From the NCBI GenBank assembly GCA_963676915.2, contig CAXXVK010000029.1, forward strand, positions 1 through 59,910: a stretch of DNA of 59,910 nt, in the 5' to 3' direction. This document shows positions 21,233-48,060 of the stretch, in pieces. Source of the stretch: Myxococcota bacterium (lineage in GTDB: Bacteria > Myxococcota_A > SURF-8 > G963663525). Every line of letters starts with the position of its first letter. Within the stretch, counting starts at the first letter, position 1. A program made the position numbers and the translations under genes. Under the pieces are notes generated by a model that was given only the letters and a program-made list of their open reading frames with translations, was not told the origin of the DNA and did not search any database.

Positions 21233-21266
21233 GCCCTATGCTTACTCATTGCTTACTCGAACAAAG

Positions 21267-21298
21267 AAAAAAGGACTTACGAAAACTCGTAAGTCCTT
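21267..21298 (-). terminator. Terminator following the tRNA 3' fragment
   Basis: AAGGACTTACGA-aaac-TCGTAAGTCCTT stem with a U tract on the minus strand, 8 bp after the CCA end. Confidence 0.75.
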
Positions 21299-21306
21299 GA
21301 TTTTCT

Positions 21307-21352
21307 TGGTGGAGCAAGGGGGAGTCGAACCCCCGGCCTTCTGAATGCCATT
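21307..21352 (-). other. 3' half of tRNA-Ala(GGC); attachment-site duplication (att) of an integrated element
   Basis: Minus strand reads AATGGCATTCAGAAGGCCGGGGGTTCGACTCCCCCTTGCTCCACCA: anticodon loop with GGC, T-arm GTTCGA, acceptor 3' strand and CCA; upstream sequence has no D-arm or 5' acceptor strand. Confidence 0.85.
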
Positions 21353-21502
21353 AAGCCTAGTGAGAAATTTTCGATAATTTTCCAACCCCTTGAAAATACC
21401 GCAAGTTATTGTTTTTGCAGGTTTTATAGTGTTTCGCGCTGTCTGGTTTCCTTTTTGTTCATCCTTCATTTTTCGTTAAAATCACCTTGTTTTCGTGCAA
21501 TT

Positions 21503-21521
21503 TTGGCACAGATTGGCACAG
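21503..21521. repeat. Tandem 9-bp direct repeat, putative tyrosine-integrase arm-type sites
   Basis: TTGGCACAG-a-TTGGCACAG about 150 bp inside the att core. Confidence 0.55.
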
Positions 21522-21614
21522 GATTTTGGAGTAAATATATTGATTAGAAACAACCTTCTTACAACACTTCTCGCATAACTTTTCGCGCTCATTCTTTTCC
21601 CTTCAATACAAAAT

Positions 21615-22683
21615 GCCCCCTGCAGAGGGATGTCCTGTTCGGACAGTAGGGGGAGAAAAGAAAATGAAGAGCAGTGTGCGTTTCCGGCCCCCTGCAGAGG
21701 GATGTCCTGTCTGGACTTTCTAAATTATTGCGAATATCCGTAATTTTCGTTTCCGGCCCCCTGCAGAGGGATGTCCTGTCTGGACCCTGGAGGCAAAGAT
21801 GAAATTCGAGAAACTCAGGTTTCCGGCCCCCTGCAGAGGGATGTCCTGTCTGGACGAATAATGAACATTTGAAGAAGGAAGACTAAGTTTCCGGCCCCCT
21901 GCAGAGGGATGTCCTGTCTGGACTTATCTTCTGAGAAACAGAATGATGATGGTTCATTTGTTTCCGGCCCCCTGCAGAGGGATGTCCTGTCTGGACTGCA
22001 CAACGCAGCCAGAGGGCAACAAGTTTCGTTTCCGGCCCCCTGCAGAGGGATGTCCTGTCTGGACAAGAAAGTATCGTTTTTTTTGTGTTTGATGGGTTTC
22101 CGGCCCCCTGCAGAGGGATGTCCTGTCTGGACATTATTTTTATCGCTATCAGTATATGAAACGGTTTCCGGCCCTCTGCAGAGGGATGTCCTGTCTGGAC
22201 TGTTGTTTTTTTGGGGATTGTCAAGGAGGAGAGTTTCCGGCCCTCTGCAGAGGGATGTCCTGTCTGGACACCAAAGAGGAACTGAGGGCGCTCGATGAGT
22301 GTTTCCGGCCCTCTGCAGAGGGATGTCCTGTCTGGACGAAGGAAGACAACCAAGCAGTGAACACCTTTGTTTCCGGCCCTCTGCAGAGGGATGTCCTGTC
22401 TGGACTTATGGAAGAAGGGGAAAAACGCTGGGACATAAGTTTCCGGCCCTCTGCAGAGGGATGTCCTATCTGGACCCATTCAGATGGCGGAAAGCTTCCT
22501 GAAAAAGTTTCCGGCCCTCTGCAGAGGGATGTCCTGTCTGGACTTTACGAGCCCCATCAAAAACGGCAGATCATGTTTCCGGCCCTCTGCAGAGGGATGT
22601 CCTGTCTGGACAGTCCTTTCTAAGAAGATTTCTTTGCAGTACCAAAGTTTCCGGCCCTCTGCAGAGGGATGTCCTGTCTGGAC
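21615..22683 (-). CRISPR. CRISPR array 1: 16 repeats (trailer degenerate), 15 spacers of 31-36 nt
   Basis: 37-bp repeat GTCCAGACAGGACATCCCTCTGCAG(G/A)GGGCCGGAAAC on the minus strand, ending GAAAC; degenerate repeat at the left end, leader at the right. Confidence 0.98.
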
Positions 22684-22789
22684 TCTAGCCTCTGTAATAT
22701 CTTGATTTCAAAGAACTTTCAAGCCTAAAATTCGGAACCTCCCTGTTAGGTGAGCCTAAAACACCCCTTTTCCGGGGAGGTTCCGAATG
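22684..22789 (-). promoter_or_regulatory. CRISPR leader 1 with IHF-consensus site and inverted repeat
   Basis: 106 bp, 4 mismatches versus 26610-26715; AATCAAGATATTA (minus strand, 22695-22707) fits WATCARNNNNTTR; TTCGGAACCTCCC...GGGAGGTTCCGAA. Confidence 0.85.
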
Positions 22790-22791
22790 AC

Positions 22792-23076
22792 TTACACAAT
22801 AAATGCTGGTCCGTCGTCTATGGCTGGTCCACCTCCGTCTCCGATAATGGGAGGATTCAAGCTATGCTCCAGACGATAAATCTTGATAAATCCGCTTTCA
22901 ATACCCAGCTTTTCCAATGCCTCTATCATGCGTTTTTTCATGGGCCGGGTCAAGCGGCATTCGAACACGCTTTTCTGTACCCGAAAGCCGTATCCTTTCA
23001 GACATTTGTCTACCCATCGCCGTTCACGATTCGAGGAAATGTCGTAAATCACTACGTAATCCGATACGCCTTTCAT
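22792..23076 (-). CDS. cas2: CRISPR-associated endoribonuclease Cas2
   Basis: YVVIYDISSNRERRWVDKCLKGYGFRVQKSVFEC; ATGA overlap with the cas1 fusion stop. Confidence 0.96.
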   Translation of the reverse strand: MKGVSDYVVIYDISSNRERRWVDKCLKGYGFRVQKSVFECRLTRPMKKRMIEALEKLGIESGFIKIYRLEHSLNPPIIGDGGGPAIDDGPAFIV

Positions 23077-25715
23077 GATTTCCACCTGTAAAAACTCAAC
23101 GAACTTTCTCCTTTTACCCATCGACTTACGATAGCGACTTGCACCTGCAACAACTCCAGCCACGATAACTCGCCCGGGTTGCGTTTCCGGGTCAGCTCCG
23201 CTTCGTAGTGCTGAAGAAACAGTTTTCTACCTTCGTGAGTCAGGTACGCGCCGCGATCCGTCGTCTGAAAATGCTTCGACGTAATGATTTTCAGGTTCAA
23301 CAGCCGCAACAACAGACGATCCACCCGAGAACGAAACGGTTCTTGCAAGTCACAGACAAGCGACTCGTAATCGTCCGCCGGACTGTGTAAAAAACCCAGG
23401 TAAGGACTCAAACCGGCACAACGAACCAAGGCATTGAGACGCATGAACAGCAGGTAATAGCCGAAATTGAACAAACTGTTCAGGGGATCCGGCTTTTTTC
23501 GACGACGACCGGTAAAAGTAAAGGCGTCGTCTTTGATTTGCGCACCGATCTTGGCAAACACACGACGAGTAGTCTGCCCCTCGATGCCGCGAATTTCATT
23601 CACCGATCCGGCCTGAAGGATGCTTTTCGCCGCCCGTTCCAACTCGTGCAGCAAACTTGCAGTTCCAGGAGTATATCGTTGCTTGAAAACCGGCAGGTAA
23701 TTCAACAATTTAGCCTGGGCTACTTCAGCCGCCATCGCCAGGCGTTCGGTATCGCTCATACTATTGTAGCGTTCGGCGTGACGACCGACGGTCAAGTAGT
23801 ATTCTTTCGAGTCGGGTTTAACCGTTACGATGTTGTACCCTGATCCGAGGGACAGACTGACCGGAACCTTGCGCTCGACACATTCGGCCAGTAAAGCCGT
23901 GGAAATTACGCTTTTTTCCAGAACCATGATTTCGCTGATACGCCCAAGGGGAATGGTTTCCAGGATTTTTCGATAGCGGGTAACATCCACGGCGCTACCG
24001 TTTTTTGCCAGAAACACAGCCGGTTCGGTCACGTACAGCGGCTTTTTCAGTCGTTTGCCTTCCTGTTCGAAATCGGGAAGCGGCTCTCCTTTCCCCAACT
24101 CCAAGCCCAGGAAACGAAATCCCTCGTCGATGCGGTGAATCGCCGTTTTGGCAGGTTTGATCTTCAGTCGAATGGCATCAAGGCTTCGTTCTACGGTTTC
24201 ACGAGCGGCCTGCGCCTGTTCTTCCGTGCGAGTCAGCACGATGAAATCGTCGGCGTAGCGGATCATCCGGGCATCCAATCGTTGCAAATCCTCGTCGAAG
24301 GCATCAAGATACAGATTCGCCAACAAGGGAGATAACGGACTTCCCTGGGCAAGTCCGGCGTCTCGATCCTGCAGGCGATTTTTGAACACGTAGCCGTTTT
24401 GCAGACAGGTTTTCAGCACATCCAGCACCTTGTGATCGGCCACGGGAAACATATCGTCCAAAAGAGTGAAAAGCCGCGTCAAATCCACCGAGGGAAAGAA
24501 ATCATCGATATCCGATTCCAGCACGTAGCGGTAGCCATCGTCGAGGGCTTTGCGAACACGCGTCTCTACCTCATGACGTGATCTCCCCGGTCGATAGCCG
24601 ATCGCTTCGTCCTCCAGCATCTTTTCGATTACCGGAGCCAGCAAACGGCGCAACAACTGGTGGATTACCAAGTCCTCGGGGCCAAGGCGCTCCACCATAC
24701 GCTCTCCTCCGTTGGATTTCGGCACGGCGAACGCCTGGTTCGGTGAAGGCTGCCAGCTTCCATCGATGAGGGACTCGTGCAGCCTTTCGGTCAGGGTATC
24801 GGCGTCGAAGGGGGTTCCGCCGTCCACTGAGGCTTGCAGCAGGGCGCGGTCGTGGCGATGGATCACCTCTCCCACCGCCTTGCGTATCGCCGCCCGTTGG
24901 GGAAAACGCCGGGAGAAAAACGGGGAGTTGCGTTGCAGCCTGTAATGTCCCTGGGCATTGGCCAGTTTCGAGCCGCAGTGCAACTCGCTTCCCAGAATGA
25001 GCCATGGGAGGAAATCGGAAAACCGCCCCTTCAGATAGAGTGGTCCAGCACAGCCCTTGACATACTGGACCGTTCCCGGCTGGGATTTCGAGGACCGGCG
25101 ACGCTCGCTGTAATGCCAGAACCAGGGGAGCACCTCGAAGTCATCTTTGGAGCTTCGATAGGTGAAGTCGATGCCGAACAGTCTTGAAAAGCGGCGTTCG
25201 AAAGCTTGGACGAAGGTTTTGCGGGATAAAAACGTTCGAGGTTTTTCTTTGGGTCGATGGAACGAAAAAGGCGTGTCGAAACGAAGACATAGCTCATCAT
25301 CCTCCAGCCAGTCTCCGTTTTCTTCCATAAGCTTTTCCAGGCTGCGTTCTTCAGGAGCAGCACAATCTTCCAATGCGTAGGTGATGCAATGGGTAGGATC
25401 GGCCATATGCGCCCGGCAGGCCGCCGCCCAGCGCCAGGCGTCGGCCCGGTCAGCCCGACAGAGAAACACGTCCGCCTCAATGAGCGTGGGACGCTCGCGT
25501 GGTTCCCAACGAACGAGATGATGGAAAATGCGCGGATGTTCGTGCTCGGAGCCGTCCGGGTCGAGCCAGCCCAGGGAATCGGTTGTCCCTTTGACGATAG
25601 CCTCCACCGCCCCTGCGTGGGGAGAGCGAAGATTCGGCTTAAGTGGTCTGAATTCCACACGAATCCGCCACCAACGTAAAGCGGAGAAATCGGGTTGTGG
25701 TTTTCGTTTCGGCAT
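23073..25715 (-). CDS. cas1: Cas6-reverse transcriptase-Cas1 fusion
   Basis: N-term Cas6-like (LRFDTPFSF, KGCAGPLYL, G-loop LHCGSKLANAQGHY); RT (PKSNGGER, GYRPGRS, SDIDDFFPSV, GLAQGSPLSPLLANLYL, RYADDF, FRFLG); Cas1 (RGIEG, NSLFNFGY, LSPYLGFLH, SLVCDLQEPFR). Confidence 0.95.
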   Translation of the reverse strand: MPKRKPQPDFSALRWWRIRVEFRPLKPNLRSPHAGAVEAIVKGTTDSLGWLDPDGSEHEHPRIFHHLVRWEPRERPTLIEADVFLCRADRADAWRWAAACRAHMADPTHCITYALEDCAAPEERSLEKLMEENGDWLEDDELCLRFDTPFSFHRPKEKPRTFLSRKTFVQAFERRFSRLFGIDFTYRSSKDDFEVLPWFWHYSERRRSSKSQPGTVQYVKGCAGPLYLKGRFSDFLPWLILGSELHCGSKLANAQGHYRLQRNSPFFSRRFPQRAAIRKAVGEVIHRHDRALLQASVDGGTPFDADTLTERLHESLIDGSWQPSPNQAFAVPKSNGGERMVERLGPEDLVIHQLLRRLLAPVIEKMLEDEAIGYRPGRSRHEVETRVRKALDDGYRYVLESDIDDFFPSVDLTRLFTLLDDMFPVADHKVLDVLKTCLQNGYVFKNRLQDRDAGLAQGSPLSPLLANLYLDAFDEDLQRLDARMIRYADDFIVLTRTEEQAQAARETVERSLDAIRLKIKPAKTAIHRIDEGFRFLGLELGKGEPLPDFEQEGKRLKKPLYVTEPAVFLAKNGSAVDVTRYRKILETIPLGRISEIMVLEKSVISTALLAECVERKVPVSLSLGSGYNIVTVKPDSKEYYLTVGRHAERYNSMSDTERLAMAAEVAQAKLLNYLPVFKQRYTPGTASLLHELERAAKSILQAGSVNEIRGIEGQTTRRVFAKIGAQIKDDAFTFTGRRRKKPDPLNSLFNFGYYLLFMRLNALVRCAGLSPYLGFLHSPADDYESLVCDLQEPFRSRVDRLLLRLLNLKIITSKHFQTTDRGAYLTHEGRKLFLQHYEAELTRKRNPGELSWLELLQVQVAIVSRWVKGESSLSFYRWKS

Positions 25716-25737
25716 TGTTTTTCTTTCTATTCAAAGA

Positions 25738-26609
25738 CCCCCTGCAGAGGGATGTCCTGTCTGGACTCACAATTATTACCCCATTTTGGAGGAATTAAGT
25801 TTCCGGCCCCCTGCAGAGGGATGTCCTGTCTGGACTCACAATTATTACCCCATTTTGGAGGAATTAAGTTTCCGGCCCCCTGCAGAGGGATGTCCTGTCT
25901 GGACTCACAATTATTACCCCATTTTGGAGGAATTAAGTTTCCGGCCCCCTGCAGAGGGATGTCCTGTCTGGACCGATTGCCGAGAGTCGGAGGAATATCC
26001 CGATAATGTTTCCGGCCCCCTGCAGAGGGATGTCCTGTCTGGACCAATGGTGCGTAATTTGGGTGAAGCCCAAAGTTTCCGGCCCCCTGCAGAGGGATGT
26101 CCTGTCTGGACACAGGTAGTTACGAGAGCTTAGCAGAGTTGACAATGAACGTTTCCGGCCCCCTGCAGAGGGATGTCCTGTCTGGACCTTGCTTGAAAGT
26201 GGGGAGGAGATTGGAAAAGTTTCCGGCCCCCTGCAGAGGGATGTCCTGTCTGGACTCAAAGTTACACTCACACAAGTGAATATACTATGTTTCCGGCCCC
26301 CTGCAGAGGGATGTCCTGTCTGGACAAACACAGAACCAACGAGAAACTGCCAAGGAGCGTTTCCGGCCCCCTGCAGAGGGATGTCCTGTCTGGACAGCAC
26401 GGTCTGGATATACACGCTCGCCTTACGGGTGTTTCCGGCCCCCTGCAGAGGGATGTCCTATCTGGACAAAATACGACGATGCGAAAAAAAATCTTGAAAT
26501 CTGTTTCCGGCCCTCTGCAGAGGGATGTCCTATCTGGACACATTCGGAATATAAAAAACTCAGCCCTAAATTGTTTCCGGCCCTCTGCAGAGGGATGTCC
26601 TATCTGGAC
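25738..26609 (-). CRISPR. CRISPR array 2: 13 repeats (trailer degenerate), 12 spacers of 30-39 nt, trailer spacer present three times
   Basis: Same 37-bp repeat as array 1; spacer TCACAATTATTACCCCATTTTGGAGGAATTAA at 25767, 25836 and 25905. Confidence 0.98.
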
Positions 26610-26715
26610 TCTAGCCTCTGTAATATCTTGATTTCAAAGAACTTTCAAGCCTAAAATTCGGAACCTCCCTGTTAGGCGGACCTAAACCACCCCTTTTCCG
26701 GGGAGGTTCCGAATG
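26610..26715 (-). promoter_or_regulatory. CRISPR leader 2 (near-identical copy of leader 1)
   Basis: 102/106 identical to 22684-22789; IHF-consensus site at 26621-26633. Confidence 0.85.
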
Positions 26716-26741
26716 GATTGCTAAAAAAAGCGGTTTCATAT

Positions 26742-27764
26742 TTATAATTTTTCCGTTAAATCCTGCTCTTGCCAAAGTATTTGCAACAAAATCCCCAAAG
26801 CACTACCAAATAAAGGGAATTGGATCAACAAAGATACATTAGATGCAATTTCCAACCATGGAGCCTGATTGAGGACATATCTCATGACCTCATGGCCTAC
26901 AAGCAGATAAAACACCTCGGATAGCAAAATCCCTTGAAGAATAAATAAAGTAACAACCACACTGCCACGCTGAAATAGCAATTTCGGATATTTGTAAGTT
27001 TTTTTTCCAACTCGTAAAAACACGAAAAAAATAATGCAGACCAAAGGAAATAGGATCCCCCAAAATAAAGGCAAAGCGGATACCATTAGCCAACCCTCCG
27101 CTACACCCATTAAAGCAAAAAGACCGATCGACGTCGCCGCCATCATACGTGGCATTAAAAAATTCCAATAGTTTAACATTTTTCTCTTAAACGAAAGACT
27201 TCTATAAATGCGTCGAGCTGAAACAAAATCATAACGTTTTAAAAACCATTCGATACCAAATTCTGCCAATTCGGCATGAGTAATAAAAAACGACCTAAGA
27301 CCGCCTTTGCCATCATCTTCGAAAAATACGGATCGTGCTTCCTTTTCTATGGCTGGACATGTATTATCATCGTTGCTTAATAAGCGAGAAAACAACAAGT
27401 CGTATCTACTTTTTTCCCTTTGTACAAAATGATTAAGCCAATTGACAACGTAGGCAAAAGCATTGCTTTTATGCTCTTCTGGCATGGAATCATTCCATTT
27501 AATCAATGCCAGTCGAGCCTGAACCTTGTCTAATACAAAGTCATAATGTGGTACTGAACGAACTGAATCAGACAAATTATCCAGTGTTTCCTGCAACAAT
27601 AAATAATCGTCGTAACCTATTTTTTTTATCCGTTCGTCATTCGAATTCCTGCAAAATTCTAGCAGTCTCTCTTTGCGATTCTCACCGGGAAATTTTAATT
27701 TTTCAGCCGCCTGGTCCAACTCATCAAAAATCAACGATGAAGCGTTCATTCTGTTGTTTGTCAT
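26742..27764 (-). CDS. CRISPR-associated membrane protein (soluble N-terminal domain plus about 4 TM helices), candidate effector
   Basis: Last gene of the cmr operon, ATGA-coupled to the CARF gene; about 200 hydrophilic residues followed by four hydrophobic stretches; family not recognised. Confidence 0.7.
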   Translation of the reverse strand: MTNNRMNASSLIFDELDQAAEKLKFPGENRKERLLEFCRNSNDERIKKIGYDDYLLLQETLDNLSDSVRSVPHYDFVLDKVQARLALIKWNDSMPEEHKSNAFAYVVNWLNHFVQREKSRYDLLFSRLLSNDDNTCPAIEKEARSVFFEDDGKGGLRSFFITHAELAEFGIEWFLKRYDFVSARRIYRSLSFKRKMLNYWNFLMPRMMAATSIGLFALMGVAEGWLMVSALPLFWGILFPLVCIIFFVFLRVGKKTYKYPKLLFQRGSVVVTLFILQGILLSEVFYLLVGHEVMRYVLNQAPWLEIASNVSLLIQFPLFGSALGILLQILWQEQDLTEKL

Positions 27765-28552
27765 GATAAGTCACTAACTTTCCGAGCCCTTGAGGTCAGA
27801 TGACTCTTTTTTGCTTCCCCAGAAGTCGTCTGGATCATTCGTTCAGACGTCGACAGAGGTTTGCAAAGCATAGTGGAATCTTCAAAAAGGTAGTAGGTCT
27901 CTCGATACCAATCAGGTTTCGTAATATCTTTCAACAGATAGTGCACAAAATGTAGCAATGTTCCTTTGTACCCACCGGTTAAATTGAAATACACTTGCGG
28001 ATCTGAAGCTTTTGCAAGCTTTTCTTCGAGAAGACTCGTCATTTTCCATAGCGCGTTATCGAAACCAATTGGATTGCAAGGATCCAATCCTTGTACTTCC
28101 AACCATTGTGATTGTATAAGTTTCGGTAAGAAGTATTGTTTTTGGTCATCAGGTAACAGGAGTTGATTCAAGATACCTTCGTTCATCGTTGCCGAGAGTC
28201 TACCCTCCTCGTCATCTCCATGGATAAAAAGCAATTCATAATTTGCAATTGTTTCATCCGGCTGGAAAATTTCTTGATCAATATAAAACAGGGACGCCAA
28301 TTCCGCACTCAAGTCCTGTCGTGGACCATACTGCCATGTGTCGACATCAAATTGATCTTGCACGCTGTCAGTATTTTTCATCAGCTTTTTTACCACTTGG
28401 TCCCGGACGGTTTCTACCTCCATCAGATTTTCCAATGAGTAGTCAGTGCGATTCAAACCAATTTTTTTTCTGTATTCTGAAACCGCTTTCCAACACGTAG
28501 CAGATCGCAAGATACTTGTGCCGCATGGAGCAACTAAAAATGTTGTTTTCAT
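27761..28552 (-). CDS. Standalone CARF protein, APE2256/SSO1393 (Crn1-like) family, probable ring nuclease
   Basis: VAPCGTSIL, SAELASL, VQGL and FNLTGGYKG motifs, YYLFED; no C-terminal HEPN RxxxxH domain. Confidence 0.8.
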   Translation of the reverse strand: MKTTFLVAPCGTSILRSATCWKAVSEYRKKIGLNRTDYSLENLMEVETVRDQVVKKLMKNTDSVQDQFDVDTWQYGPRQDLSAELASLFYIDQEIFQPDETIANYELLFIHGDDEEGRLSATMNEGILNQLLLPDDQKQYFLPKLIQSQWLEVQGLDPCNPIGFDNALWKMTSLLEEKLAKASDPQVYFNLTGGYKGTLLHFVHYLLKDITKPDWYRETYYLFEDSTMLCKPLSTSERMIQTTSGEAKKSHLTSRARKVSDLS

Positions 28553-28566
28553 GACCGTTTCTCCGT

Positions 28567-29451
28567 TTAAGTGCTCGCTGTAGATCTGAAATATCCATAA
28601 CCCGAACTGCTTTTACCACCTACGCCATAGTTCATCAGGGCCTTTTCCAGGATGCCTTTGGCGTTAGTCAACAAGGTTCTTTGACGCTCCACAGGTACCC
28701 AGTCAGATGTTCGAAGCCCGAATACAAAGGGAACTCCTTTGCAGACCGTCAAAAAGGGCACAGGATTAGGCTCATCCGATTCTTTAGGCGACTGACCGCC
28801 ATTACTGCTGTAATATTTCATATGGTGATTGGTAAGAACATCGACGGTCAATAGTTTACGACTAATGTCCTTGGGCCAAGCATCGAGAAATATTACGCTC
28901 CCTTCGGAGCCTTGCTTGCGATTGCCTTTCGCATCGATAAAAGGCGGAAAGCCAAAAATCTCTTTCCATGAGGCTTTGTCAGCATATTCTGGATGGTCCG
29001 CCCCCCAATGCGCTGCTAGACCTTTCAGCGAGGCACCGAGAAGAACCGGAAAACCGTAGAGAGGATGTAGGGTCAAGTGGGTTTCAATTACAGAAGACTC
29101 ACCCATACCCGTAACAAGCCGGCAAGCGGTTTCCAAAGAAAAAACGTACGCATCTTTATAATAACGTCTGAGTCTAACAGAATGTAACTTTCTTTGGTTA
29201 TATGCACTTTGGTTTCCTGTAAACTCAACCTGTTCAATCCCCATTTGTTTGGCACTTTTCGCAACTGGCCTTCCAAGAACTTCATCGGTAAATACAAGAT
29301 ATTTGTCCATTAAAAGGCCAGGATTTGCGTAGTTAGCTATCTGACGTAACAATTTCAGTTCCAACGACACAATTTTGCCATTATGATGTCCTACGGTATG
29401 AGGCAAATCTTCCACCCCTTGGCAACCATACAGCACATTACTAATCTCCAT
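28567..29451 (-). CDS. cmr6: Type III-B RAMP Cmr6
   Basis: RLVTGMGESSVIETHLTLHPLYGFPVLLGASLKG, FLDAWP, VDVLTNHHMKYY, PNPVPFLTV, GVGGKSSSGYG. Confidence 0.95.
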   Translation of the reverse strand: MEISNVLYGCQGVEDLPHTVGHHNGKIVSLELKLLRQIANYANPGLLMDKYLVFTDEVLGRPVAKSAKQMGIEQVEFTGNQSAYNQRKLHSVRLRRYYKDAYVFSLETACRLVTGMGESSVIETHLTLHPLYGFPVLLGASLKGLAAHWGADHPEYADKASWKEIFGFPPFIDAKGNRKQGSEGSVIFLDAWPKDISRKLLTVDVLTNHHMKYYSSNGGQSPKESDEPNPVPFLTVCKGVPFVFGLRTSDWVPVERQRTLLTNAKGILEKALMNYGVGGKSSSGYGYFRSTAST

Positions 29452-30007
29452 AGGCTTGTCCTTTCACTGTCTGACCATTCTCACCTGCTTGACCGTCGGT
29501 CTTTTTAAACGTAGCTTCAGAAAACAACTTTAACCAAGTCAACAGCTTCTGGCATTGCATGGTTGCATGCATCAGAAATATAGGATCACTATCAAGAATC
29601 GCGTTCATCATACTTTTTACGGATTGTGAGGAATCTTTATCCAAAACGCCACAATCCATTTCCCCGCGATTTACGCAACAATCCAGATAATGTAGAATCT
29701 GAGTTGCCACCAATTCACGGGACTCTTTCTTGGCCATCATGAAAGCCAGCGCCTGAGCCAATCCGGCGCGATGAATCAGCAGGGGTGCTTCACGCACAGA
29801 TGCGAAATAACTTTCTCCCATCTCACCAATCACTTTTGCTTTCCGACTGTCCGTGACTTCTTTATCTAACCATTTGATAGTGAAATTTCTCTTAGAACTT
29901 TTTAAAATCAATGTTCTTCCACTGATATCCGCCCCTGAAATCTGCTGAACAAGACCTAAAGCACATCGTGCCCTTAAATGATCTGCCGATTGAATGCTCA
30001 CACTCAT
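29441..30007 (-). CDS. cmr5: Type III-B small subunit Cmr5
   Basis: HLRARCAL..Y..VREAPLLIHRAGLAQALAFMMAK..WLKLFSEA; lies between cmr4 and cmr6. Confidence 0.88.
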   Translation of the reverse strand: MSVSIQSADHLRARCALGLVQQISGADISGRTLILKSSKRNFTIKWLDKEVTDSRKAKVIGEMGESYFASVREAPLLIHRAGLAQALAFMMAKKESRELVATQILHYLDCCVNRGEMDCGVLDKDSSQSVKSMMNAILDSDPIFLMHATMQCQKLLTWLKLFSEATFKKTDGQAGENGQTVKGQAYGD

Positions 30008-30969
30008 GACTGCACCTCGTATTTCTTGTTTTGTGATATTGCGTCACCGTGCAGTGCGAAAGTGACAATCCCTTTCCCTGTTGTTTCATCACCACCGACC
30101 TGCAGTCGCTCATCGGTGATAATTTCTTTGAAGGCATCGAATACATCATTGGCAGAGGCATAAGGATCTTTTTTAAAGGGGCATCGTGCCTGGAAAGGAA
30201 TGAACATGAGACTTTCTTGTGGAAGGTATTCGCTGTATCTCAGGCTGCCCTCTTCCGTCACACCATTTTTGCCTATGCGGATATTAGCCTGGATCTCCGT
30301 CCCAAACCGGGTAAAGTAGGTAAACATTGTATCGCTGACCACAACAAGACGATCGGTGAAGTCTTTCAACATGGAATCATCATCTGAATAGACAACATTA
30401 CCGATCAGATCTCCGAACTCTTTGAATGCTGGATTTTCGGACTTATAAGCCTTCAATGGATACTCTTCTAAAAAGACTTTACCCTTATAGGCAAGTAGAT
30501 TTTCACTAGCTGAAGTGACCAACACATGATCCTGATGTGTTGCTAGATCCCTCGTGATCTTCATGAGGGGGTCGATCATATCAATCGGGTGGGTATATTG
30601 CTTGGCGAACTGTTGCAAGCGTCTGAGAACCATGGGACAGGTAAGCAACGCGTACCCACCTACTAAAGACCTAATGGGCATAGTAAAGAGATAGGCATCC
30701 ACAAAATCAAGAAACCCGATATTTTTATCCCCCGTATTATCCATAGTCCCAAAAAGGATATTGAGTTTGTGTTCACATTGTGTGCTTGTCTCCCATTTAG
30801 TCTTGCAGTGTGCCCGAAAAACGCCTTTAAGACTACTGGACTGGACAAAGGGCAACCCGGTATGACGTTCCCGAATGATCGGACGATCGATGTAATCTAC
30901 AGTTTCACCCGCACCGTTATGCAGGGGAGTAATGCAACTCATCCAAAGCATTCCACTTTTTGCCAGCAT
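30004..30969 (-). CDS. cmr4: Type III-B RAMP Cmr4 (target RNA cleavage backbone)
   Basis: TPLHNGAG..IDRPIIRERHTGLPFVQSSSLKG, PIRSL, LRYSEYLP, QVGGDETTGKG. Confidence 0.96.
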   Translation of the reverse strand: MLAKSGMLWMSCITPLHNGAGETVDYIDRPIIRERHTGLPFVQSSSLKGVFRAHCKTKWETSTQCEHKLNILFGTMDNTGDKNIGFLDFVDAYLFTMPIRSLVGGYALLTCPMVLRRLQQFAKQYTHPIDMIDPLMKITRDLATHQDHVLVTSASENLLAYKGKVFLEEYPLKAYKSENPAFKEFGDLIGNVVYSDDDSMLKDFTDRLVVVSDTMFTYFTRFGTEIQANIRIGKNGVTEEGSLRYSEYLPQESLMFIPFQARCPFKKDPYASANDVFDAFKEIITDERLQVGGDETTGKGIVTFALHGDAISQNKKYEVQS

Positions 30970-30971
30970 AG

Positions 30972-32126
30972 TTAACTCCTTTGTTGTTCCCAGGAACCTA
31001 TCAGCGTTTGGCCGAAACCGGCACGTTGAAGTCCCGAACTACCATCAGAAACGGATTTGTTTAAAAGGTAGCAATCAACCAGATCATCAACGATCTGGTT
31101 GTCATCGATTTCGTAGAAATAAACAGACCCAGCCGGTGCAAGTCTGCGCAAAGCCTTAGCTCTACCTTTGGCATAATCCCAACCAGCCATATGGGTAGAC
31201 TTCTGAAGAGCGGCTCCTATTGGATAAAGTCCGAACATTTTATCCGGCGATGGAAACCATCCCTTGTCGAAGATTGACGGCGTGGCCAAGTAAATGAAAA
31301 ATCGACCCGAATCGTTTATGCTTTTCTTTATCTTCTTCGCAACATCACTTGAAAGCCCTGACCATGCTTCATGTTGAATCGACACCATGTGGTGCTTCCC
31401 ACCGATTGGGAAGTTTTTATAATGCGCAACAGTGGATAAATCCATACCTGTAACCATGGCCGCATAGGAGGAATCATCTGACTTAAAGCGTCTTGTGTTG
31501 ACTTGGTAGAGGCGTTCATCTTTCACAGTATGACTCTGTTCTTCGCGTTCGTGCCCATACCTAGGTTCGGAAATCCAGATCTCCGATTCGGGCAACACGC
31601 TTAAAGAACAAAGCCCAGGGGACATGTTTAGGCAAAGTTCAAGCAATTTATTGAGTGAAATCCAACTTTTCTCTGCTTTCACCTCATCACGTTTTTCGTC
31701 GGTCAGGATAGGACGTATGTTGGTGGTGCCTAAGTCGTTAAGTATGGAGTTCTCACCAGGAACGCCCAAAGTATAGGTGCCATCTTCGTTTTGAAACAGA
31801 TTGGTGGGCGCCTGAAAATATAGCCGATTAGACAAATATAAAAATGGCCCTTTTATACTCAACGTCCCTTTAACGGGTTCAGGCGTCGCTTCACCTATGA
31901 TGTCAACAAGTGGTGCGACTGTGTCGCTTAATTTTTCAGATCTGCTTTGCTTGACATAATCCGATGGCTCGACACCCGATGAGTGAAGAATCAGGCTGCG
32001 AATCGCTCCGAAAAATACTGAAGGCAACGGATAGATTCCGTCCAATATACTGCCGAGTTCGGCAGATCTAAGGTCTCTGAAAAATAGGACATCATTGGGA
32101 TGAAAAGTCATTAATTCGATTGTCAT
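30972..32126 (-). CDS. cmr3: Type III-B Cmr3
   Basis: PNDVLFFRD, PLPSVFFGAIRS, KGPFL, PIGGKHH, YLATPSIF, GWDY, PAGSVYFY, GFG. Confidence 0.95.
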   Translation of the reverse strand: MTIELMTFHPNDVLFFRDLRSAELGSILDGIYPLPSVFFGAIRSLILHSSGVEPSDYVKQSRSEKLSDTVAPLVDIIGEATPEPVKGTLSIKGPFLYLSNRLYFQAPTNLFQNEDGTYTLGVPGENSILNDLGTTNIRPILTDEKRDEVKAEKSWISLNKLLELCLNMSPGLCSLSVLPESEIWISEPRYGHEREEQSHTVKDERLYQVNTRRFKSDDSSYAAMVTGMDLSTVAHYKNFPIGGKHHMVSIQHEAWSGLSSDVAKKIKKSINDSGRFFIYLATPSIFDKGWFPSPDKMFGLYPIGAALQKSTHMAGWDYAKGRAKALRRLAPAGSVYFYEIDDNQIVDDLVDCYLLNKSVSDGSSGLQRAGFGQTLIGSWEQQRS

Positions 32127-33883
32127 CGGTCACCTGCCTCTCTGGCAATGACGGCTAATCCATGAAGAGCGTGAAGAACATTATCCAATGCCGTGCGATC
32201 CCCCGGTGGATGATATTTTGCTAATTGTACCAAGCCGTCATGAATGGCTTGTTTGGCTTCCTCTTCAGCATTCGAATCAAGGCATTGCCTCTGTATAAGG
32301 ACCGATAATACCGCACTGAACATTTCTGGTTCCAAGCGACCTTTATTCGAACAAATCAAGGCAAGTTCAGATAACCTGTAGAGAAAACGTGATGAAAGCA
32401 TAGGACTAGAACCACTAATGGCCGAGAGGATTTTTTTGCAGATATCAGTCCACTCATGGCTGTTAGTGGTGTTCCATGAGTGTCCGAAGGTGCTACTTCC
32501 TCCTGATGACTGAAGAACCGTAGTCACCAACGCATTGCGTTTGAACGTCTTTTTCGCATGGTTGGCACTTTCATAAGCAACCGAAACAGCGAGTCTAAGC
32601 GGTTGGTGAATAGGCAGAAAAACAAGAGCACCAGAAATTGTGGGGCTTTGATTCTTGGCATTGCTACAGAACTCTAACTTTTCGGCAAATGTTTTTTTCA
32701 GCTTACTGACGGCCGAGAAAACGTGCTCAGCAGGCAATAAAGCGAACAGATCATCCCCACCGGCATAAACAAGTTGGCCACCGTTCTCTGTAATAATTGT
32801 ATCAAATGCTTTAGCGATGATCGAAAGGCTTTGGCTAAATGTTTTACAATAGTCAACATAGGAGTTGTTTTTGTCGGCATACCCATCACCACCAATCCAC
32901 TTCCCGATATGATCGCCATCGAAAATCACCAAGCAATAATATTTTGATGGTGAACAGGGAAAAGCTTTTAAAAACCCTTTTTGAGCCATCAATAAAGCAT
33001 TGTAAGATTGCTTCTTACTCTCGACTATTTTTCCATCCGTGGTCAGGAGGGGCGAAATGATGTCTTCCAGACCAGACTCGTAAAACAGCGAACAGTGTTT
33101 TTTCTCCAAATCCAACCACGAGTCAGGCAGATTTACAACGGCAAGTTCGCGCTCGATCGTTTTTTTAAATTCTTTCCAATGTTTTTCAATTGAGGATTTT
33201 TCATCATCTGATGCTGTTTTAATCTCTTCCCTGAAATGAAATGAAGCCAATTCGGCGGCTGTTTTAATTGAATTTCCAAGCTTTAACATCCTCTTGCCGG
33301 TACAAACCGAACACAAACGCTCACGCTTTCTAAAACGCACATCAGATTTAAATAAGTGCTGCCAGTTAAGATCGGCAACTGGCCGCAAGCCGCATTGAGT
33401 GCATTTTTCCCCTGCTAAATGACCTGGAATTGACGAAAACTCTCTGGTCCTTTTCCTGGCTTCAAAGAGTCTGTCCAGATTTTGGATATCTTCTTGTCTT
33501 AGAGAATCATTTTCACTTAATTGCTGAGCCACCCAGCGAATAGTAAACAGGTCGTCAAACCAAAAATCATCCCCATCACGATATTGAAACGCGGAACTCA
33601 AGGATGTCTTCCATGACCTCCTTGCTGCTTCTTCCACTTGATGCACAATAGTACTTAGCTGTTCTTGCAAAAGATTAAGTATGCCCACGAAATAATTGGG
33701 ATGATGCTGATTGTCATTTGCAGGATAGAGAATATCTCCCGAATGCTTCATAAATTCCAGGCGTGCAGCATAAATAGCATTGACTAACATAGAAGAAGCC
33801 GAGCAGAGGTCCCTTGTACGTCCAGCTTGTACGATAAATTCTTGAACGGGGGAGATGGAAAGTTTTATTAGAAATCGTGCCAT
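32123..33883 (-). CDS. cmr2: Cas10/Cmr2 without HD domain, intact Palm cyclase motif
   Basis: SISPVQEFIVQAGRTRDLCSAS at the N-terminus (no HD domain), Zn finger CTQCG..CSVC, DGDHIGKWI, YAGGDDLFA. Confidence 0.96.
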   Translation of the reverse strand: MARFLIKLSISPVQEFIVQAGRTRDLCSASSMLVNAIYAARLEFMKHSGDILYPANDNQHHPNYFVGILNLLQEQLSTIVHQVEEAARRSWKTSLSSAFQYRDGDDFWFDDLFTIRWVAQQLSENDSLRQEDIQNLDRLFEARKRTREFSSIPGHLAGEKCTQCGLRPVADLNWQHLFKSDVRFRKRERLCSVCTGKRMLKLGNSIKTAAELASFHFREEIKTASDDEKSSIEKHWKEFKKTIERELAVVNLPDSWLDLEKKHCSLFYESGLEDIISPLLTTDGKIVESKKQSYNALLMAQKGFLKAFPCSPSKYYCLVIFDGDHIGKWIGGDGYADKNNSYVDYCKTFSQSLSIIAKAFDTIITENGGQLVYAGGDDLFALLPAEHVFSAVSKLKKTFAEKLEFCSNAKNQSPTISGALVFLPIHQPLRLAVSVAYESANHAKKTFKRNALVTTVLQSSGGSSTFGHSWNTTNSHEWTDICKKILSAISGSSPMLSSRFLYRLSELALICSNKGRLEPEMFSAVLSVLIQRQCLDSNAEEEAKQAIHDGLVQLAKYHPPGDRTALDNVLHALHGLAVIAREAGDR

Positions 33884-34875
33884 ACTAAATCCTCTTTTGA
33901 TAATGGTTCAAAGCCAAGATCTTTTAATAACATGCCTACAAGAGGAAGCCTTAAAGGATCAAGTGGCGAGGAAGTAATTAATTTTTTATTGACAATTGGT
34001 GGAGACCAGATGGCCACTGGCACAACCATATTATTGTTTACTGGAGTTAATCGAATCGCAAGCGGTGAAGCAAGGCGTTTTCTCTCATCACCGAGTAGAT
34101 TTCGAAATACATCGTAATTCTTATTTTTCAAGAATGAGCATTTCGACATAATCACTTCAATAGCCCCTCGAGAATTAGATATATTGGGTCTATTCAATTC
34201 ACGGCCTACAAAAACATGCTTTGGTGATGCCACATGAAAAATGCTTGATGCACGAGGTTTTGCAGTGTGAGACTTATTGCCAAGAAAGACTGAGATTAGC
34301 CTCTGAGATTGCAACAAGCTAGATTTGAGCTGAATTAATAGTTGATCACGAGTAATATTTTCTTCACATACAGGAAAGTCATCAAATTCTTGTTTCTCTG
34401 TAGTCTGGAGGTTTGTTATCGCAATCGAACCAGCTCCACGACGTCCCCGCCTGCCGAGAGAGCCAAAATTACCCCACATCCAGATGCTTGCAATAAAAGC
34501 ATTAAGCCATTCTCTAGTTGGTACATCCAAAATTTGAAATTCAATTTTAGCATTTAGTCCAGCTGGATAAGCCTTTAAAGGAAACTTTCGTTTAGGAACA
34601 ACTCGCGTATCTGTCGCCACCCATGAATCTTCGTCAATTAGCTTAATACGCATCCGAAAAGTCATCTTTTCTGTGCTACCAAAAAGCTTTTCTTCTTCTA
34701 TAAATAATGGCTCGCTTTCAAAATCCAACAAAGGAGTTGCTATTGCACGAAACCAATGCCGCAATTGTCCTCGAACTGAGGAACCACGAATTCCATCAGG
34801 ATCGGTTTTATTGGCTCCACCAATAAAAAGCGGGCTGACAAATTTAAAGTTGCAAGTGAGAATTTGCTGAACCAT
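33868..34875 (-). CDS. cmr1: Type III-B RAMP Cmr1
   Basis: FVSPLFIGGA..IRGSSVRGQLRHWFRA, EEKLFGST, FGSLGRRGRRGAGS, RLASPL; RBS GGAGAG before ATG 34875. Confidence 0.94.
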   Translation of the reverse strand: MVQQILTCNFKFVSPLFIGGANKTDPDGIRGSSVRGQLRHWFRAIATPLLDFESEPLFIEEEKLFGSTEKMTFRMRIKLIDEDSWVATDTRVVPKRKFPLKAYPAGLNAKIEFQILDVPTREWLNAFIASIWMWGNFGSLGRRGRRGAGSIAITNLQTTEKQEFDDFPVCEENITRDQLLIQLKSSLLQSQRLISVFLGNKSHTAKPRASSIFHVASPKHVFVGRELNRPNISNSRGAIEVIMSKCSFLKNKNYDVFRNLLGDERKRLASPLAIRLTPVNNNMVVPVAIWSPPIVNKKLITSSPLDPLRLPLVGMLLKDLGFEPLSKEDLVWHDF

Positions 34876-35151
34876 ATCAATCTCTCCAGCAATTGTTATT
34901 TTCGTGATTTCAATACTCTTATAAAAAACATACCAATACAAATCAAATAAATAAATCCAGAAATATCCAATTATTCCAAAAATTAACCCAGCGCGAGACA
35001 TTATAAATCGTTAATAGCAAAAACCATATAGATTAATTGATATTCTGCTAAATCATAAAAAAGAATTATAGATACACTTGCCAATTTCCCTTCAAGCGCC
35101 TTTTGTAGTATAAAAAGAAATCGAATCAATCAGATTTTGGAGCTTGTGCCC

Positions 35152-36240
35152 ATGACCCGCTTTTCTCAATATTTTCGACCCTTTGCCACCCTGACCCCGA
35201 TCATCCTTACCATCTTTCTCCTCCTGCCAATCCTCCTCCTCCCCACCGGTTGCGAGGATGACGGCGTAACCTTCAGCCCGTTGACCGACATTGATGTAGA
35301 GACCGAAACTGACGCCCCTGGGGATTATGACCAAGCCGACGTTACCGACATCCCGGAAGATTCTGATTCCACTGATTCGGACAACGACACCGACAGCTTA
35401 GACCAAACCGACATCGAAGGTACTGATTCCGACAACGAAGGTGCCGATTCCGACCGCATCGAGGTCGACCCGAACGACCCCTGCGGTCGTGAGATTTTCA
35501 ATCATCCGAATCCCTGTACCGAGCTAAACAAAACCGTCTGCATTCCCGATGGAGAAACCTATACCTGTCGCTGCGAGCCGGGCTATGTCGAAAATTCCTC
35601 GGGGAATTGTAGCCTGACCAATCCCTGCGAAATCGACCAAACTTGCTATGATGATCACCATCTCTGTCTGATTCAGGGTGGTGAGGCCACCTGTGGGGAT
35701 TGCTTGTACGGCTACCACGAGGAAAATGACGAATGCGTGCCCGACGTACATCCGGATGGGAACCCGATCTGGTCCGATGCCGGTACCGGGCTGGATTGGC
35801 AGGCCGTCCCCCCGGAAAGTGAAATGACCTGGGATTGGGCGGTCAACTATTGCGACGGATTGGATCTGGGAGGTTTTACCGACTGGCGCTTGCCGAATAT
35901 CACCGAGTTGCGCACGTTGTTGCGGGATTGCTGGACGGTTTCGGCCTATAGCGATGCCTGCCCTGTCCACGATGTGTGTTCCCACTGCGGGCCGTTCCCC
36001 TTCGATGCTTGTTTGGAGGTGGAGTGCAAAATTATGGAATTTTGTGGAAAATGCAGAAATGGAAGTGCATTTCCCGAGGATTTACCAGGAGCAGATGATG
36101 GCTATTGGTGGTCGTCCTCGGAAACCTCTTGGGGAGGAAACAATACAAGTGCATGGGAATTGAATTATCAAGGAACAATCGGGCATAATAATAAACTATC
36201 TTCTAGCACAAAAATTCGTTGTGTCCGTGGCCCCAACTAA
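35152..36240 (+). CDS. Lipoprotein with acidic linker, EGF-like Cys repeats and DUF1566 (Lcl-type C-lectin fold) domain
   Basis: Lipobox PTGC; DAGTGLDWQ, MTWDWAVNYC, GGFTDWRLPNITELRTL, YWWSSS, AW, IRCVR. Confidence 0.85.
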   Translation: MTRFSQYFRPFATLTPIILTIFLLLPILLLPTGCEDDGVTFSPLTDIDVETETDAPGDYDQADVTDIPEDSDSTDSDNDTDSLDQTDIEGTDSDNEGADSDRIEVDPNDPCGREIFNHPNPCTELNKTVCIPDGETYTCRCEPGYVENSSGNCSLTNPCEIDQTCYDDHHLCLIQGGEATCGDCLYGYHEENDECVPDVHPDGNPIWSDAGTGLDWQAVPPESEMTWDWAVNYCDGLDLGGFTDWRLPNITELRTLLRDCWTVSAYSDACPVHDVCSHCGPFPFDACLEVECKIMEFCGKCRNGSAFPEDLPGADDGYWWSSSETSWGGNNTSAWELNYQGTIGHNNKLSSSTKIRCVRGPN

Positions 36241-36242
36241 AA

Positions 36243-36268
36243 ACGCTCTCCCGTTTTCAGGAGAGCGT
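36243..36268. terminator. Hairpin between convergent genes
   Basis: ACGCTCTCC-cgttttca-GGAGAGCGT. Confidence 0.5.
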
Positions 36269-36294
36269 CACAATCCAACCCATTGAAAGCTTTT

Positions 36295-37893: not shown

Positions 37894-37916
37894 GGATTTT
37901 TCCTTTCCATAAGGGG

Positions 37917-38501
37917 TTATGAGTGGATCCACTCGTTCCAAACGCCCTGATTCCGATCGGGTTCCTCGTTCCAACAACGGGGAGCCAATTCCGATTCGAC
38001 CAGGGCCAACGTATGAGCCGGTTTCAATTTGCGTAGGGTTCTGTAAAAAACGGTCCAGTCCGAGATCAAGCCATCCCAAGCGGTGATCTTCACGACGAAA
38101 TAGGACCAGTAGGGGGTGCCTTTGTAGGGTTCGAGTACTTCCACCGTGTAGCCAATGTCAGCCAGTCCCTGAGTAATACCTGGGATGGTCCCGGCCCGAT
38201 GCTGGACCGTAAAGGCGTTGAGAACACGGACACGAAAATCTTCGTCGGTCTCGCCATCACGACGAACGAGATGGCGCAGGCGTGCCAGACGATCGAGATA
38301 GGTACCGGTGGCGGTAACAGCCATGGTTTCGGGGCAAGTGAGGGCAAGGGTTTCGCGCACATCGTCGAATTCCTCGCCCAGAATGTCGCAGATTTTCCCC
38401 AATAGTGCGCTTACCCGCTCCTTTTTCTTCATGAAGCCGGGCAATAGATACCAGAGATAATCGGCGATTTTCAGGACAGTCAGTGCGGTTCGGCTACTCA
38501 T
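37917..38501 (-). CDS. Phage tail protein I/baseplate wedge-like
   Basis: TATGTYLDRLA..RRDGETDEDFRVR..GTIPGI..LRKLKPAHT; directly after baseplate J. Confidence 0.8.
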   Translation of the reverse strand: MSSRTALTVLKIADYLWYLLPGFMKKKERVSALLGKICDILGEEFDDVRETLALTCPETMAVTATGTYLDRLARLRHLVRRDGETDEDFRVRVLNAFTVQHRAGTIPGITQGLADIGYTVEVLEPYKGTPYWSYFVVKITAWDGLISDWTVFYRTLRKLKPAHTLALVESELAPRCWNEEPDRNQGVWNEWIHS

Positions 38502-39631: not shown

Positions 39632-39649
39632 AGATTTAGCTCCTTATTT

Positions 39650-40069
39650 TTAAAGTTCAGTATTCAATCCCCAAACCATGTTGAAACGATTGGTCCATTC
39701 CTCTCCCAGCGGCACGAACGACAGGTCGAACTGAATCTGTCGTCCATCCCGCGTGGGAGTGATTGCGATAGAATCCGGCTCGATACGTGGGGCCACCGAG
39801 GGGTCATAGGTGAGAGCATCTGCGATGGCACGCACGGCAAGCTGCTCGAAATCGTTTCGATCCTCTTCACCGACCAGACGGGTGATGCCCGCGCCGTATT
39901 CCGGGTGTCCGAAAAGATCGCCCGGGAGCGTATCGAGCAGGTTGGCCACATCTTGTAAAAGCGTGGTTCTACCGGACGATGTAACGGCCAGATCTCCTGT
40001 GGATCCCACTTGAAGATCTCCCAATTCGTCCAGTTGCAAATCGATGCCGAGATTTTCGTAATCGCTCAT
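39650..40069 (-). CDS. Baseplate wedge protein, gp25/GPW-like
   Basis: GDLAVTSSG..LLQDV..LDTLPGDLFGHPEYGAGI..DP..PRI; upstream of baseplate J. Confidence 0.8.
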   Translation of the reverse strand: MSDYENLGIDLQLDELGDLQVGSTGDLAVTSSGRTTLLQDVANLLDTLPGDLFGHPEYGAGITRLVGEEDRNDFEQLAVRAIADALTYDPSVAPRIEPDSIAITPTRDGRQIQFDLSFVPLGEEWTNRFNMVWGLNTEL

Positions 40070-40070
40070 C

Positions 40071-45366: not shown

Positions 45367-45482
45367 TTCCTCTTAAATTCCTGATTTCAAAGACAAATTC
45401 ATGGGGTTCAAAACCCTTCCCCTCATTGAAAAAAAGTGGTAGTTTGAAGATGTCGTAAGATTCGACATTGAGGAGGCACACG

Positions 45483-47359: not shown

Positions 47360-47382
47360 GAGTATTCTCCGAAATATGGGTA

Positions 47383-47411: not shown

Positions 47412-47417
47412 TAAGAT

Positions 47418-47612: not shown

Positions 47613-47618
47613 AACATC

Positions 47619-48056: not shown

Positions 48057-48060
48057 TTTT

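Follow-up and report, generated by a model that had tools for sequence, protein, structure and literature searches.

A reverse transcriptase-linked type III-B CRISPR-Cas locus in DNA inserted at a tRNA-Ala gene, beside a myophage late-gene block: island cargo or phage cargo?

Which mobile element carries a CRISPR-Cas locus that stands between a displaced tRNA fragment and the tail genes of a phage? The question is raised by contig C29 of an uncultured Myxococcota genome, analysed over its whole length of 59,910 bp and called the window below, in which a type III-B system with a Cas6-reverse transcriptase (RT)-Cas1 fusion lies between the 3′ half of a tRNA-Ala(GGC) gene and a block of myophage late genes. 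The genome (G000) is a metagenome bin of 74 contigs and 5.18 Mb (90.8% complete, 3.8% contamination) and was compared with G001, the sole genome of the same genus in the comparison, and with G003 and G004 of the same order. There is good support for the CRISPR locus being mobile cargo at tRNA-Ala, and it is probable, if with considerable reserve, that the DNA inserted there comprises two mobile elements, a CRISPR island and a phage nested in or beside this island.

On the minus strand, 21307-21352 carries the displaced 3′ 46 nt of tRNA-Ala(GGC) from the anticodon to CCA, with the anticodon GGC, the variable loop, the T-arm and an acceptor strand with U70 and ACCA, and the match to the tRNA ends at position 33/34. 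Comparison of 21264-21355 with the 3′ half and terminator hairpin of the intact tRNA-Ala(GGC) of G001 gave 97.8% identity over 92 nt and revealed the att core as a perfect 46-nt copy; the displaced half at 21307 and the core of ~46 bp reported in a first-pass annotation of this DNA are thus exact in coordinates and size. A tRNA-Ala 43-mer occurs once in the window, where none of 100 shuffles reached even one match, and once in the assembly, and ARAGORN called 0 tRNAs in the window. When DNA inserts at a tRNA gene, its far end is recognised by a displaced tRNA 3′ half with host DNA behind it, the insert lying on the 5′ side of the fragment. Ordinary cellular genes occupy positions 1-21173, and the fragment accordingly marks the outer boundary of the inserted DNA. 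Since the inserted side lies above 21352 and the degenerate last repeat of array 1 begins only ~260 bp from the tRNA core, the CRISPR locus falls inside the inserted DNA.

Just downstream of the tRNA 3′ end, a terminator hairpin (21264-21306, minus strand) is 98% identical to that after the intact tRNA-Ala of G001 and represents a motif repeated after several tRNAs. Its stem, GGACTTACG...CGTAAGTCC, recurs after different tRNA genes in G000, G001 and other genomes of the order, and similar hairpins in G000 lie at C55:28907-28967 (tRNA-His), C59:24067-24146 (tRNA-Thr) and C34:5220-5276, where it stands behind another orphan 3′ fragment of a tRNA and may point to one more insertion site.

Inside the boundary, an att arm block (21427-21529, plus strand) contains two direct TTGGCACAG repeats (~21503-21521) that are probable arm-type sites of an integrase. 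This 103-bp block is 90% identical to C55:10030-10132 and, among the 41 genomes searched, was found in G000 only. In G001, the gene for a 438-aa integrase adjoins the hairpin and the intact tRNA-Ala and likewise bears the TTGGCACAG repeat pair at its 3′ end; this integrase heads an island with no phage genes, in which orphan YD cassettes and ISL3 transposases accompany a 2446-aa RHS/YD-repeat protein. The arm block on C55 adjoins two genes without phage relatives and an integrase remnant abutting a tRNA-His fragment. Because the same TTGGCACAG sites occur in the RHS island of G001 and in the mini-island on C55, the att arm of the window would belong to a non-phage element family. The region C55:9856-29050 displays tandem insertions at tRNA-His: the intact tRNA lies at 28974-29050, a perfect 53-bp copy of its 3′ end at 14950-15002 has a 397-aa integrase just inside, and outside this copy the older integrase remnant (14407-14667) is accompanied by genes for 820-aa and 505-aa proteins, ending in the shared 103-bp arm block.

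No integrase is encoded in the window, and of the eight PF00589 matches in G000 none adjoins a tRNA-Ala gene; the nearest G000 homologue of the G001 tRNA-Ala integrase lies on C17 with 41% identity, and the gene for the tRNA-Ala integrase may be unassembled. Neither the 5′ half of tRNA-Ala(GGC) nor the intact gene was found in the G000 assembly. The only public run found to contain window DNA (X1), which may be the window's own source, was inspected as Logan assembly contigs, not as reads. One X1 contig shares the att core and then runs into the tRNA 5′ half, identical to G001 at 30 of 30 nt, so the intact tRNA-Ala(GGC) exists in the X1 sample, and the contig joining core and 5′ half could represent attL or an empty site. 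Two X1 contig ends near the window were followed and set aside, as the one before 21238 proved to be the hairpin after tRNA-Thr on C59 and the one behind 21526 led to the arm block on C55. An empty-site comparison of G000 with G001 was likewise abandoned, the two being too diverged and rearranged: the genes upstream of the G001 tRNA-Ala map to C60:264-266 kb, and no tRNA is present there. No other G000 contig end overlapped the end of C29 at k = 21-127.

Ownership of the att site was therefore judged from relatives, because the tRNA, the integrase and the phage early genes are absent from the assembly. The late-gene block (36295-59910, minus strand, cut by the contig end) was identified by PHROG matches and by synteny with prophages, and the same matches bear out the myophage tail-fibre gene at 36295 and the late genes behind it that had been recognised in the first-pass annotation. 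A search with the sheath protein found relatives in four of 300 other genomes sampled from the phylum (five of 301 with G000), all of the same taxonomic order. Seven prophage copies were compared (three in G001, two in G003 and two in G004), and six of them keep the order from capsid to fibre at 40-87% protein identity, copy a of G001 being cut at the tape-measure gene. None of the seven contains a match to the cas proteins of the window, nor does any of the 12 viral or metagenome loci tested. No tRNA stands beside any of the seven prophages in the 60-80-kb regions first fetched, and in the extended G001 regions the nearest genes of this kind are a tmRNA at 22 kb and a tRNA-Ala(CGC) at 10.5 kb. 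All eight relatives in which the region is visible encode a recombinase of their own of ~295-300 aa: the seven prophages each have on their far side a tyrosine recombinase whose open frame measures 295 aa, and on the 56-kb viral contig G302 its counterpart has 300 aa.

The junctions behind the fibre gene are close to it in most readable cases. Copies b and c of G001, 92-94% identical in DNA, diverge 9 nt past the fibre stop codon; in the G004 copy a, a CheB/CheR chemotaxis gene begins 537 bp after the fibre gene; and in the locus L091 from a metagenome-assembled genome (MAG), an FGE-sulfatase-like gene follows after ~1 kb. Because these phages have their own recombinase, lack an adjoining tRNA and cas genes, and end within ~1 kb of the fibre gene in most readable junctions, the family appears to behave as an independent element. 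Genome size points in the same direction. The related prophages span ~35-45 kb, a range to be read with the caution that the viral contigs have a CheckV-style completeness of 13-48% and the genome size of the family is not settled; the late region measures 23.6 kb here, against ~19.5 kb in three relatives. The extra 14.9 kb (21353-36294) would enlarge such a genome by about one third, which would be a large excess for a homologous capsid, the capsid protein being 53-55% identical to those of the relatives.

Combined, these comparisons suggest an arrangement of two parts. The first element would be a genomic island of the integrase type, whose outer end is the displaced tRNA half with its TTGGCACAG arm and whose cargo at this end is the type III-B system. 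The second would be a temperate myophage of a family common in this Myxococcota order, equipped with its own small tyrosine recombinase, which may have inserted into or beside the island with its end at ~35.0-36.3 kb.

Several observations weigh against this arrangement. No boundary between the CRISPR locus and the phage was found, and a second att-like sequence (a tRNA-Ala copy, the hairpin or the arm block) was not detected beyond chance in 34.9-36.4 kb, in the phage block or in the rest of the window. The contiguity of the two parts without a second boundary, which had been claimed previously, stands: they are contiguous in the MAG contig and in a Logan contig of X1, with no second att between them. 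This Logan contig is unbroken over 26647-38790, covering the cmr genes, the lipoprotein-like gene that follows them and the fibre gene and including 2.5 kb of fibre and baseplate genes, and depths are similar on both sides (7.4 for the flank, 6.8 for cas1 and 6.1 from cmr to fibre). Beyond 38.8 kb (38790-40500), the Logan contigs of X1 are short and shallow, with depths of 2.6, 1.0 and 0.01 compared with ~6 before, and phage variants in the X1 sample could be tangling the assembly graph there. All cas genes lie on the same strand as the late genes. The interval between fibre and attR is the usual home of accessory genes in temperate phages, and related phages often exchange their integration modules, which means that the module used by this phage cannot be read from its relatives. 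The phage ends also vary, as a small gene after the fibre gene in copies b of G001 and a of G004 is absent from copy c of G001, and on the viral contig G302 early genes come directly after the fibre gene, which is overlapped by the end of an early operon with RusA, a UvrD-like helicase, an exonuclease and ERF. No att site could be defined in the related prophages, where only direct repeats of ≤13 bp were found, and no motif is shared after their fibre stop codons. Finally, two elements require either a phage inside the island or an island that lacks its tRNA-proximal end, because the intact tRNA must lie beyond the phage, and neither was seen.

The same facts bring forward the principal alternative, namely that a single composite element is present: a temperate myophage integrated at tRNA-Ala(GGC), with the entire RT-linked type III-B locus and the lipoprotein gene as its cargo between fibre and attR. 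Transcription-dependent type III targeting could spare the silent prophage while attacking competitors, and consistent with this, no spacer matches the adjacent phage or its relatives. There is a single visible att boundary at 21307-21352, non-housekeeping DNA extends from there to the contig end, no second att-like sequence interrupts it, and the bridging Logan contig has a depth similar to that of its neighbours. A precedent is provided by Vibrio cholerae and V. metoecus, in which a III-B/I-F hybrid is reported to occupy the 3′ end of a prophage region of 62 kb (PMC6360697). Nothing ties the phage to the tRNA fragment, however: the att arm matches two non-phage islands, an RHS island occupies the tRNA-Ala of G001, the relatives use a different recombinase and adjoin no tRNA, cas genes are missing from all of them, and the added DNA would pose a packaging problem. 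In addition, a same-genus homologue of the adaptation module stands away from any phage. In G001, C3:1800451-1802171 contains a leader-like stretch with a partial repeat, a truncated Cas6-RT gene and then cas2, 5.5 kb from tRNA-Val and tRNA-Arg. The truncated Cas6-RT is cut near residue 487 and lacks the Cas1 part; protein identities to the window are 62% for Cas6-RT and 50% for cas2, DNA identity is ~75%, and the leader is conserved. Within 80 kb (40 kb on each side), this remnant is accompanied by no cmr genes, no array and no match to a phage protein. The idea of the first-pass annotation that the myophage is the carrier hence keeps its visible boundary and its contiguity and loses its link between phage and att site; a myophage carrier is possible, but it is not the best reading and is less likely than two neighbouring elements.

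An improbable explanation is that the region is old and fixed, the tRNA half being the relic of a decayed insertion, the CRISPR locus now chromosomal and the phage defective or domesticated as a tail-like element, so that none of it is mobile today. Integrase, intact tRNA and the early and packaging genes of the phage were not found in the assembly, the adaptation module and the phage block resemble the genome in composition, and decay is evident in G001, both in the truncated Cas6-RT and in the phage copy cut at the tape-measure gene. Against this, the att core is a perfect 46-nt copy with intact arm sites, every cas gene and every late gene examined has an open frame, with catalytic motifs in place, the repeat variants in array 1 show polar, ordered growth, and the missing parts may simply be unassembled in a bin of this completeness and contig number. 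An assembly chimera, joining a phage block and a CRISPR-bearing host contig from different genomes of the metagenome, is hardly credible, since the bin's contamination and the short, shallow Logan contigs beyond 38.8 kb are outweighed by the unbroken Logan contig that reaches into the fibre and baseplate genes, by the genome-like tetranucleotide signature of the phage block and by the prophages of same-order genomes being its closest relatives.

In composition, the tetranucleotide match to the genome is 0.97 for the flank, 0.97 for the phage block and 0.91 for the adaptation module, and it drops to 0.70 for the block of cmr and CARF genes, below the 5th percentile of 8-kb genome chunks, with a GC content of 42% compared with 52% for the genome. 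The CRISPR locus is itself a mosaic, because the composition of its cmr-CARF block deviates and its other parts match the genome. The effector module is a newcomer relative to both neighbours, and its composition ties it to neither of them.

The first-pass annotation of a complete RT-linked type III-B locus holds, with Cas10, Cmr1-6, Cas6-RT-Cas1, cas2 and two arrays all identified, and every cas gene is encoded on the minus strand. The adaptation genes are cas2 (22792-23163; TIGR01573, 1.7e-12; PF09827, 2e-14), whose true start probably lies later than that of the open reading frame, and the gene for an 880-aa Cas6-RT-Cas1 fusion (23073-25715) with domains in the order PF10040 (6.9e-05), PF00078 (1e-28) and PF01867 (1.3e-59). 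The Cas6 part scores 23.9 bits with PF10040, just below the cut-off of 25, and the RT motif YADD is intact at residue 487. The closest solved structure is the Cas6-RT-Cas1 of PDB 7kft, which aligns only with the RT stretch (residues 318-538, E 3.6e-51).

The genes cmr6, cmr5, cmr4, cmr3, cas10/cmr2 and cmr1 occupy 28567-35001. Cmr1, Cmr3, Cmr4, Cmr5 and Cmr6 match TIGR01894, TIGR01888, TIGR02580, TIGR01881 and TIGR01898, respectively, with Pfam support, Cmr3 and Cmr5 being slightly below the NCBIfam cut-offs and above those of Pfam. Cas10/Cmr2 (32123-33883, 586 aa; TIGR02577, 5.4e-38; PF22335, 3.5e-24) displays GGDD at residue 375, an HD domain was not found in it, and a word-index search of 5.8 billion proteins returned no homologue besides itself at E ≤ 1e-30. 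Given the absence of the HD domain, Cas10 is not expected to cleave DNA, and RNA cutting by Cmr4 and cyclic-oligoadenylate signalling should account for immunity.

Two accessory genes lie between cmr6 and array 2. The first encodes a CARF-domain protein of 263 aa (27761-28552; PF09651, 6.7e-08), in which the PADLOC models CARF7 and CARF_RelE match the CARF part only and family scans recognised no effector domain; together with the match to a CARF7/APE2256-type model, this would suit either a ring nuclease or a sensor partner. The second (26742-27764), between the CARF gene and the leader of array 2, encodes a 340-aa protein that is a candidate signalling effector; its N-terminal part is soluble, and its hydrophobic segments, from residue 213 onwards, are predicted to form three or four C-terminal helices. 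It has no match in Pfam, NCBIfam, PADLOC or PDB and gave only sub-threshold matches, to unnamed clusters, in the ESM Atlas; its family comprises 15 representative clusters among 1.84 billion proteins, with conserved motifs that include WFLKRYD and a C-terminal W-EEKTITEPL. Co-folding of a CARF dimer with the N-terminal part of this protein yielded a score of 0.00 with an uncertain fold of the partner, which speaks neither for nor against a complex.

It is proposed from these assignments that the Cas6 part of the fusion would cut the repeats and that Cmr1-6 with a CRISPR RNA (crRNA) would bind complementary RNA, upon which Cas10, with its GGDD motif and no HD domain, would make cyclic oligoadenylate. 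Judging by gene position, this signal may act through the CARF protein, the neighbouring membrane protein or both. New spacers, some of them copied from RNA, would be inserted at the leader-proximal end by Cas6-RT-Cas1 and Cas2.

The 37-nt repeat is present in 27 copies in two arrays, compared with 0 expected by chance. Array 1 (21608-22683, minus strand) has 15 full repeats (21680-22683), a degenerate terminal repeat near 21615-21644 with the trailer at the low-coordinate end, and its leader at 22684-22790. Array 2 (25738-26609, minus strand) has 12 full repeats (25799-26609), a terminal repeat at 25738-25766 that is truncated and lies 22 bp from the start codon of cas6-RT-cas1, and its leader at 26610-26741. 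On the minus strand the repeat ends in ...GGAAAC, and a ...GAAAC handle is the rule by which repeats are oriented. Considering this repeat end and the mutual likeness of 22667-22723, 26593-26649 and the stretch upstream of the G001 Cas6-RT remnant, both leaders are predicted at the high-coordinate ends of their arrays, with transcription from the minus strand as for all cas genes. In array 1, a C-to-T variant occurs in the eight leader-side repeats and is absent from the seven older ones, a pattern that would fit a mutation of the first repeat with ordered growth thereafter. At 82% identity, the array-1 trailer (21590-21644) resembles the trailer junction of array 2 (25713-25766), the first bases of the gene included, and array 1 looks like a probable duplicate of array 2 together with its flanks. 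At the trailer end of array 2 (25738-25973), three repeat-spacer units are identical (100% identity, period 69).

With a single exception, the spacers had no match above chance in the window, the genome or any of the fetched loci. The exception is the newest spacer of array 1 (22612-22646), next to the leader, which has a partial match in the host genome: 28 of its 35 nt agree with the sense strand at C1:100497-100524, where a TonB-C-domain gene (C1:100513-101724, minus strand) has its stop codon and 3′ end. Pairing of the crRNA with this mRNA would leave out the first 7 nt beside the 5′ handle, and a mismatched end next to the 5′ handle possibly prevents self-activation. The match would fit uptake from a host transcript and is the only hint of RNA-derived uptake.

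RT-linked type III-B systems are established (PMC5576922, PMC5513706), Cas6-RT-Cas1 structures have been deposited (PDB 7kft and 7kfu), and the available part of the work on the system of Marinomonas mediterranea describes spacers from both RNA and DNA (PMC5576922). The system in the window shares with RT-linked III-B systems that have Cas6-RT-Cas1 the domain order, the adjacent cas2, Cmr1-6, two arrays, YADD and GGDD; it differs in its divergent Cas10, in an accessory pair of a CARF-only protein and a membrane protein of an unnamed family, and in its location in tRNA-inserted DNA of an uncultured Myxococcota genome. With the Vibrio hybrid it shares III-B effector genes at the fibre-distal end of a prophage-like region, bounded there by direct repeats, and the doubt about ownership, the authors of that report having raised the possibility of mere co-localisation with the prophage (PMC6360697). 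The available part of the same report mentions III-B genes, a resolvase, cas6f and a type I-F array and no adaptation genes, whereas the present locus has both a full RT-Cas1/Cas2 module and two cognate arrays; both ends of the Vibrio region are seen, as a 156-bp repeat, compared with one end here. It further describes a type III-A system on a 26-kb island at tRNA-Leu of V. metoecus (PMC6360697), like the present locus an insertion at a tRNA 3′ end with CRISPR-Cas cargo, the integrase family being suggested here by the arm sites. In contrast to the island as described there, a phage block lies inside or beside the island here, one att end is visible and the window contains no integrase. Among the titles and abstracts returned by searches of open-access text, none describes a complete RT-linked type III-B system in a small temperate phage.

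If the locus is island cargo, it adds one more CRISPR-Cas system to those on tRNA-integrating islands, from a poorly sampled phylum and with the unusual features of a very divergent Cas10, an RT-linked adaptation module and a signalling pair of a CARF-only protein and a rare membrane protein. If the phage carries it, a small temperate phage would possess a full adaptive RNA-guided system, RNA spacer uptake included, with which it could write its own RNA-derived memory and attack rivals while its own genome is silent, and this would bear on phage-phage competition and on the cargo tolerance of such capsids. Either way, side-by-side mobile elements at a tRNA hot spot are easily misread as one when the contig ends inside them.

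Between cmr1 and the fibre gene, a lipoprotein-like gene (35137-36240, plus strand) combines an Asp-rich repeat, an EGF-like part and a C-terminal Lcl domain (PF07603, 4.5e-17). It is convergent with the fibre gene, with which it shares a hairpin at 36246-36268. At least seven paralogues exist elsewhere in G000 and one also occurs on a related viral contig, and because copies are found in both the host genome and the viral contig, the gene can be assigned to neither side.

In the flank, the genes within 1-21173 include those for a FadL-type porin, a sulfate permease-receiver domain fusion, histidine kinases, an FGE-sulfatase-family protein, a radical-SAM protein and an RNase T-like exonuclease. 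An Rfam scan of the window gave 0 families at the gathering score.

The late block runs in the order fibre, baseplate, tape measure, endolysin, tube-like protein, sheath, neck, glycosyltransferase and major capsid (36295-59634), and the contig ends ~30 bp upstream of the small gene that precedes the capsid gene. In the relative G004a, the terminase, portal and Mu-F-like genes lie upstream, which would place them beyond the contig end here. The rest of the phage was not found in the G000 assembly: the far halves of the prophages G004a, G003a and G001c, used as tblastx queries, brought up none of it, and the assembly contains no second copy of any phage protein searched and no terminase, portal or early genes of this phage. 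C74 was considered as a continuation of the phage on account of a 131-aa domain match (C74:497-889), collinear with the flank of copy a in G001, and was rejected because the homology stops there and its neighbours belong to a repeated family. INPHARED yielded only remote sheath matches (25-28% identity) and no full-length RT-Cas1, and IMG/VR scans with single proteins for close phage relatives found nothing.

The three G001 copies, at C1:1335001-1415000, C1:2646000-2745999 and C4:15001-95000, are 91-96% identical in DNA. Just past the fibre stop codon of copy b lie a leftover fibre C-terminus and a second AATGGGGGG, which suggests a possible exchange of fibre ends. Compared with its prophage relatives, the late region of the window has extra genes at 41366-43093, 44278-45924, 47352-48068 and 56991-58711, among them those for a 575-aa protein with a 40%-identical homologue on C73, a methyltransferase and a group-1 glycosyltransferase, as well as small open reading frames. 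The glycosyltransferase and two others of these extra genes are shared with the IMG/VR contig L080.

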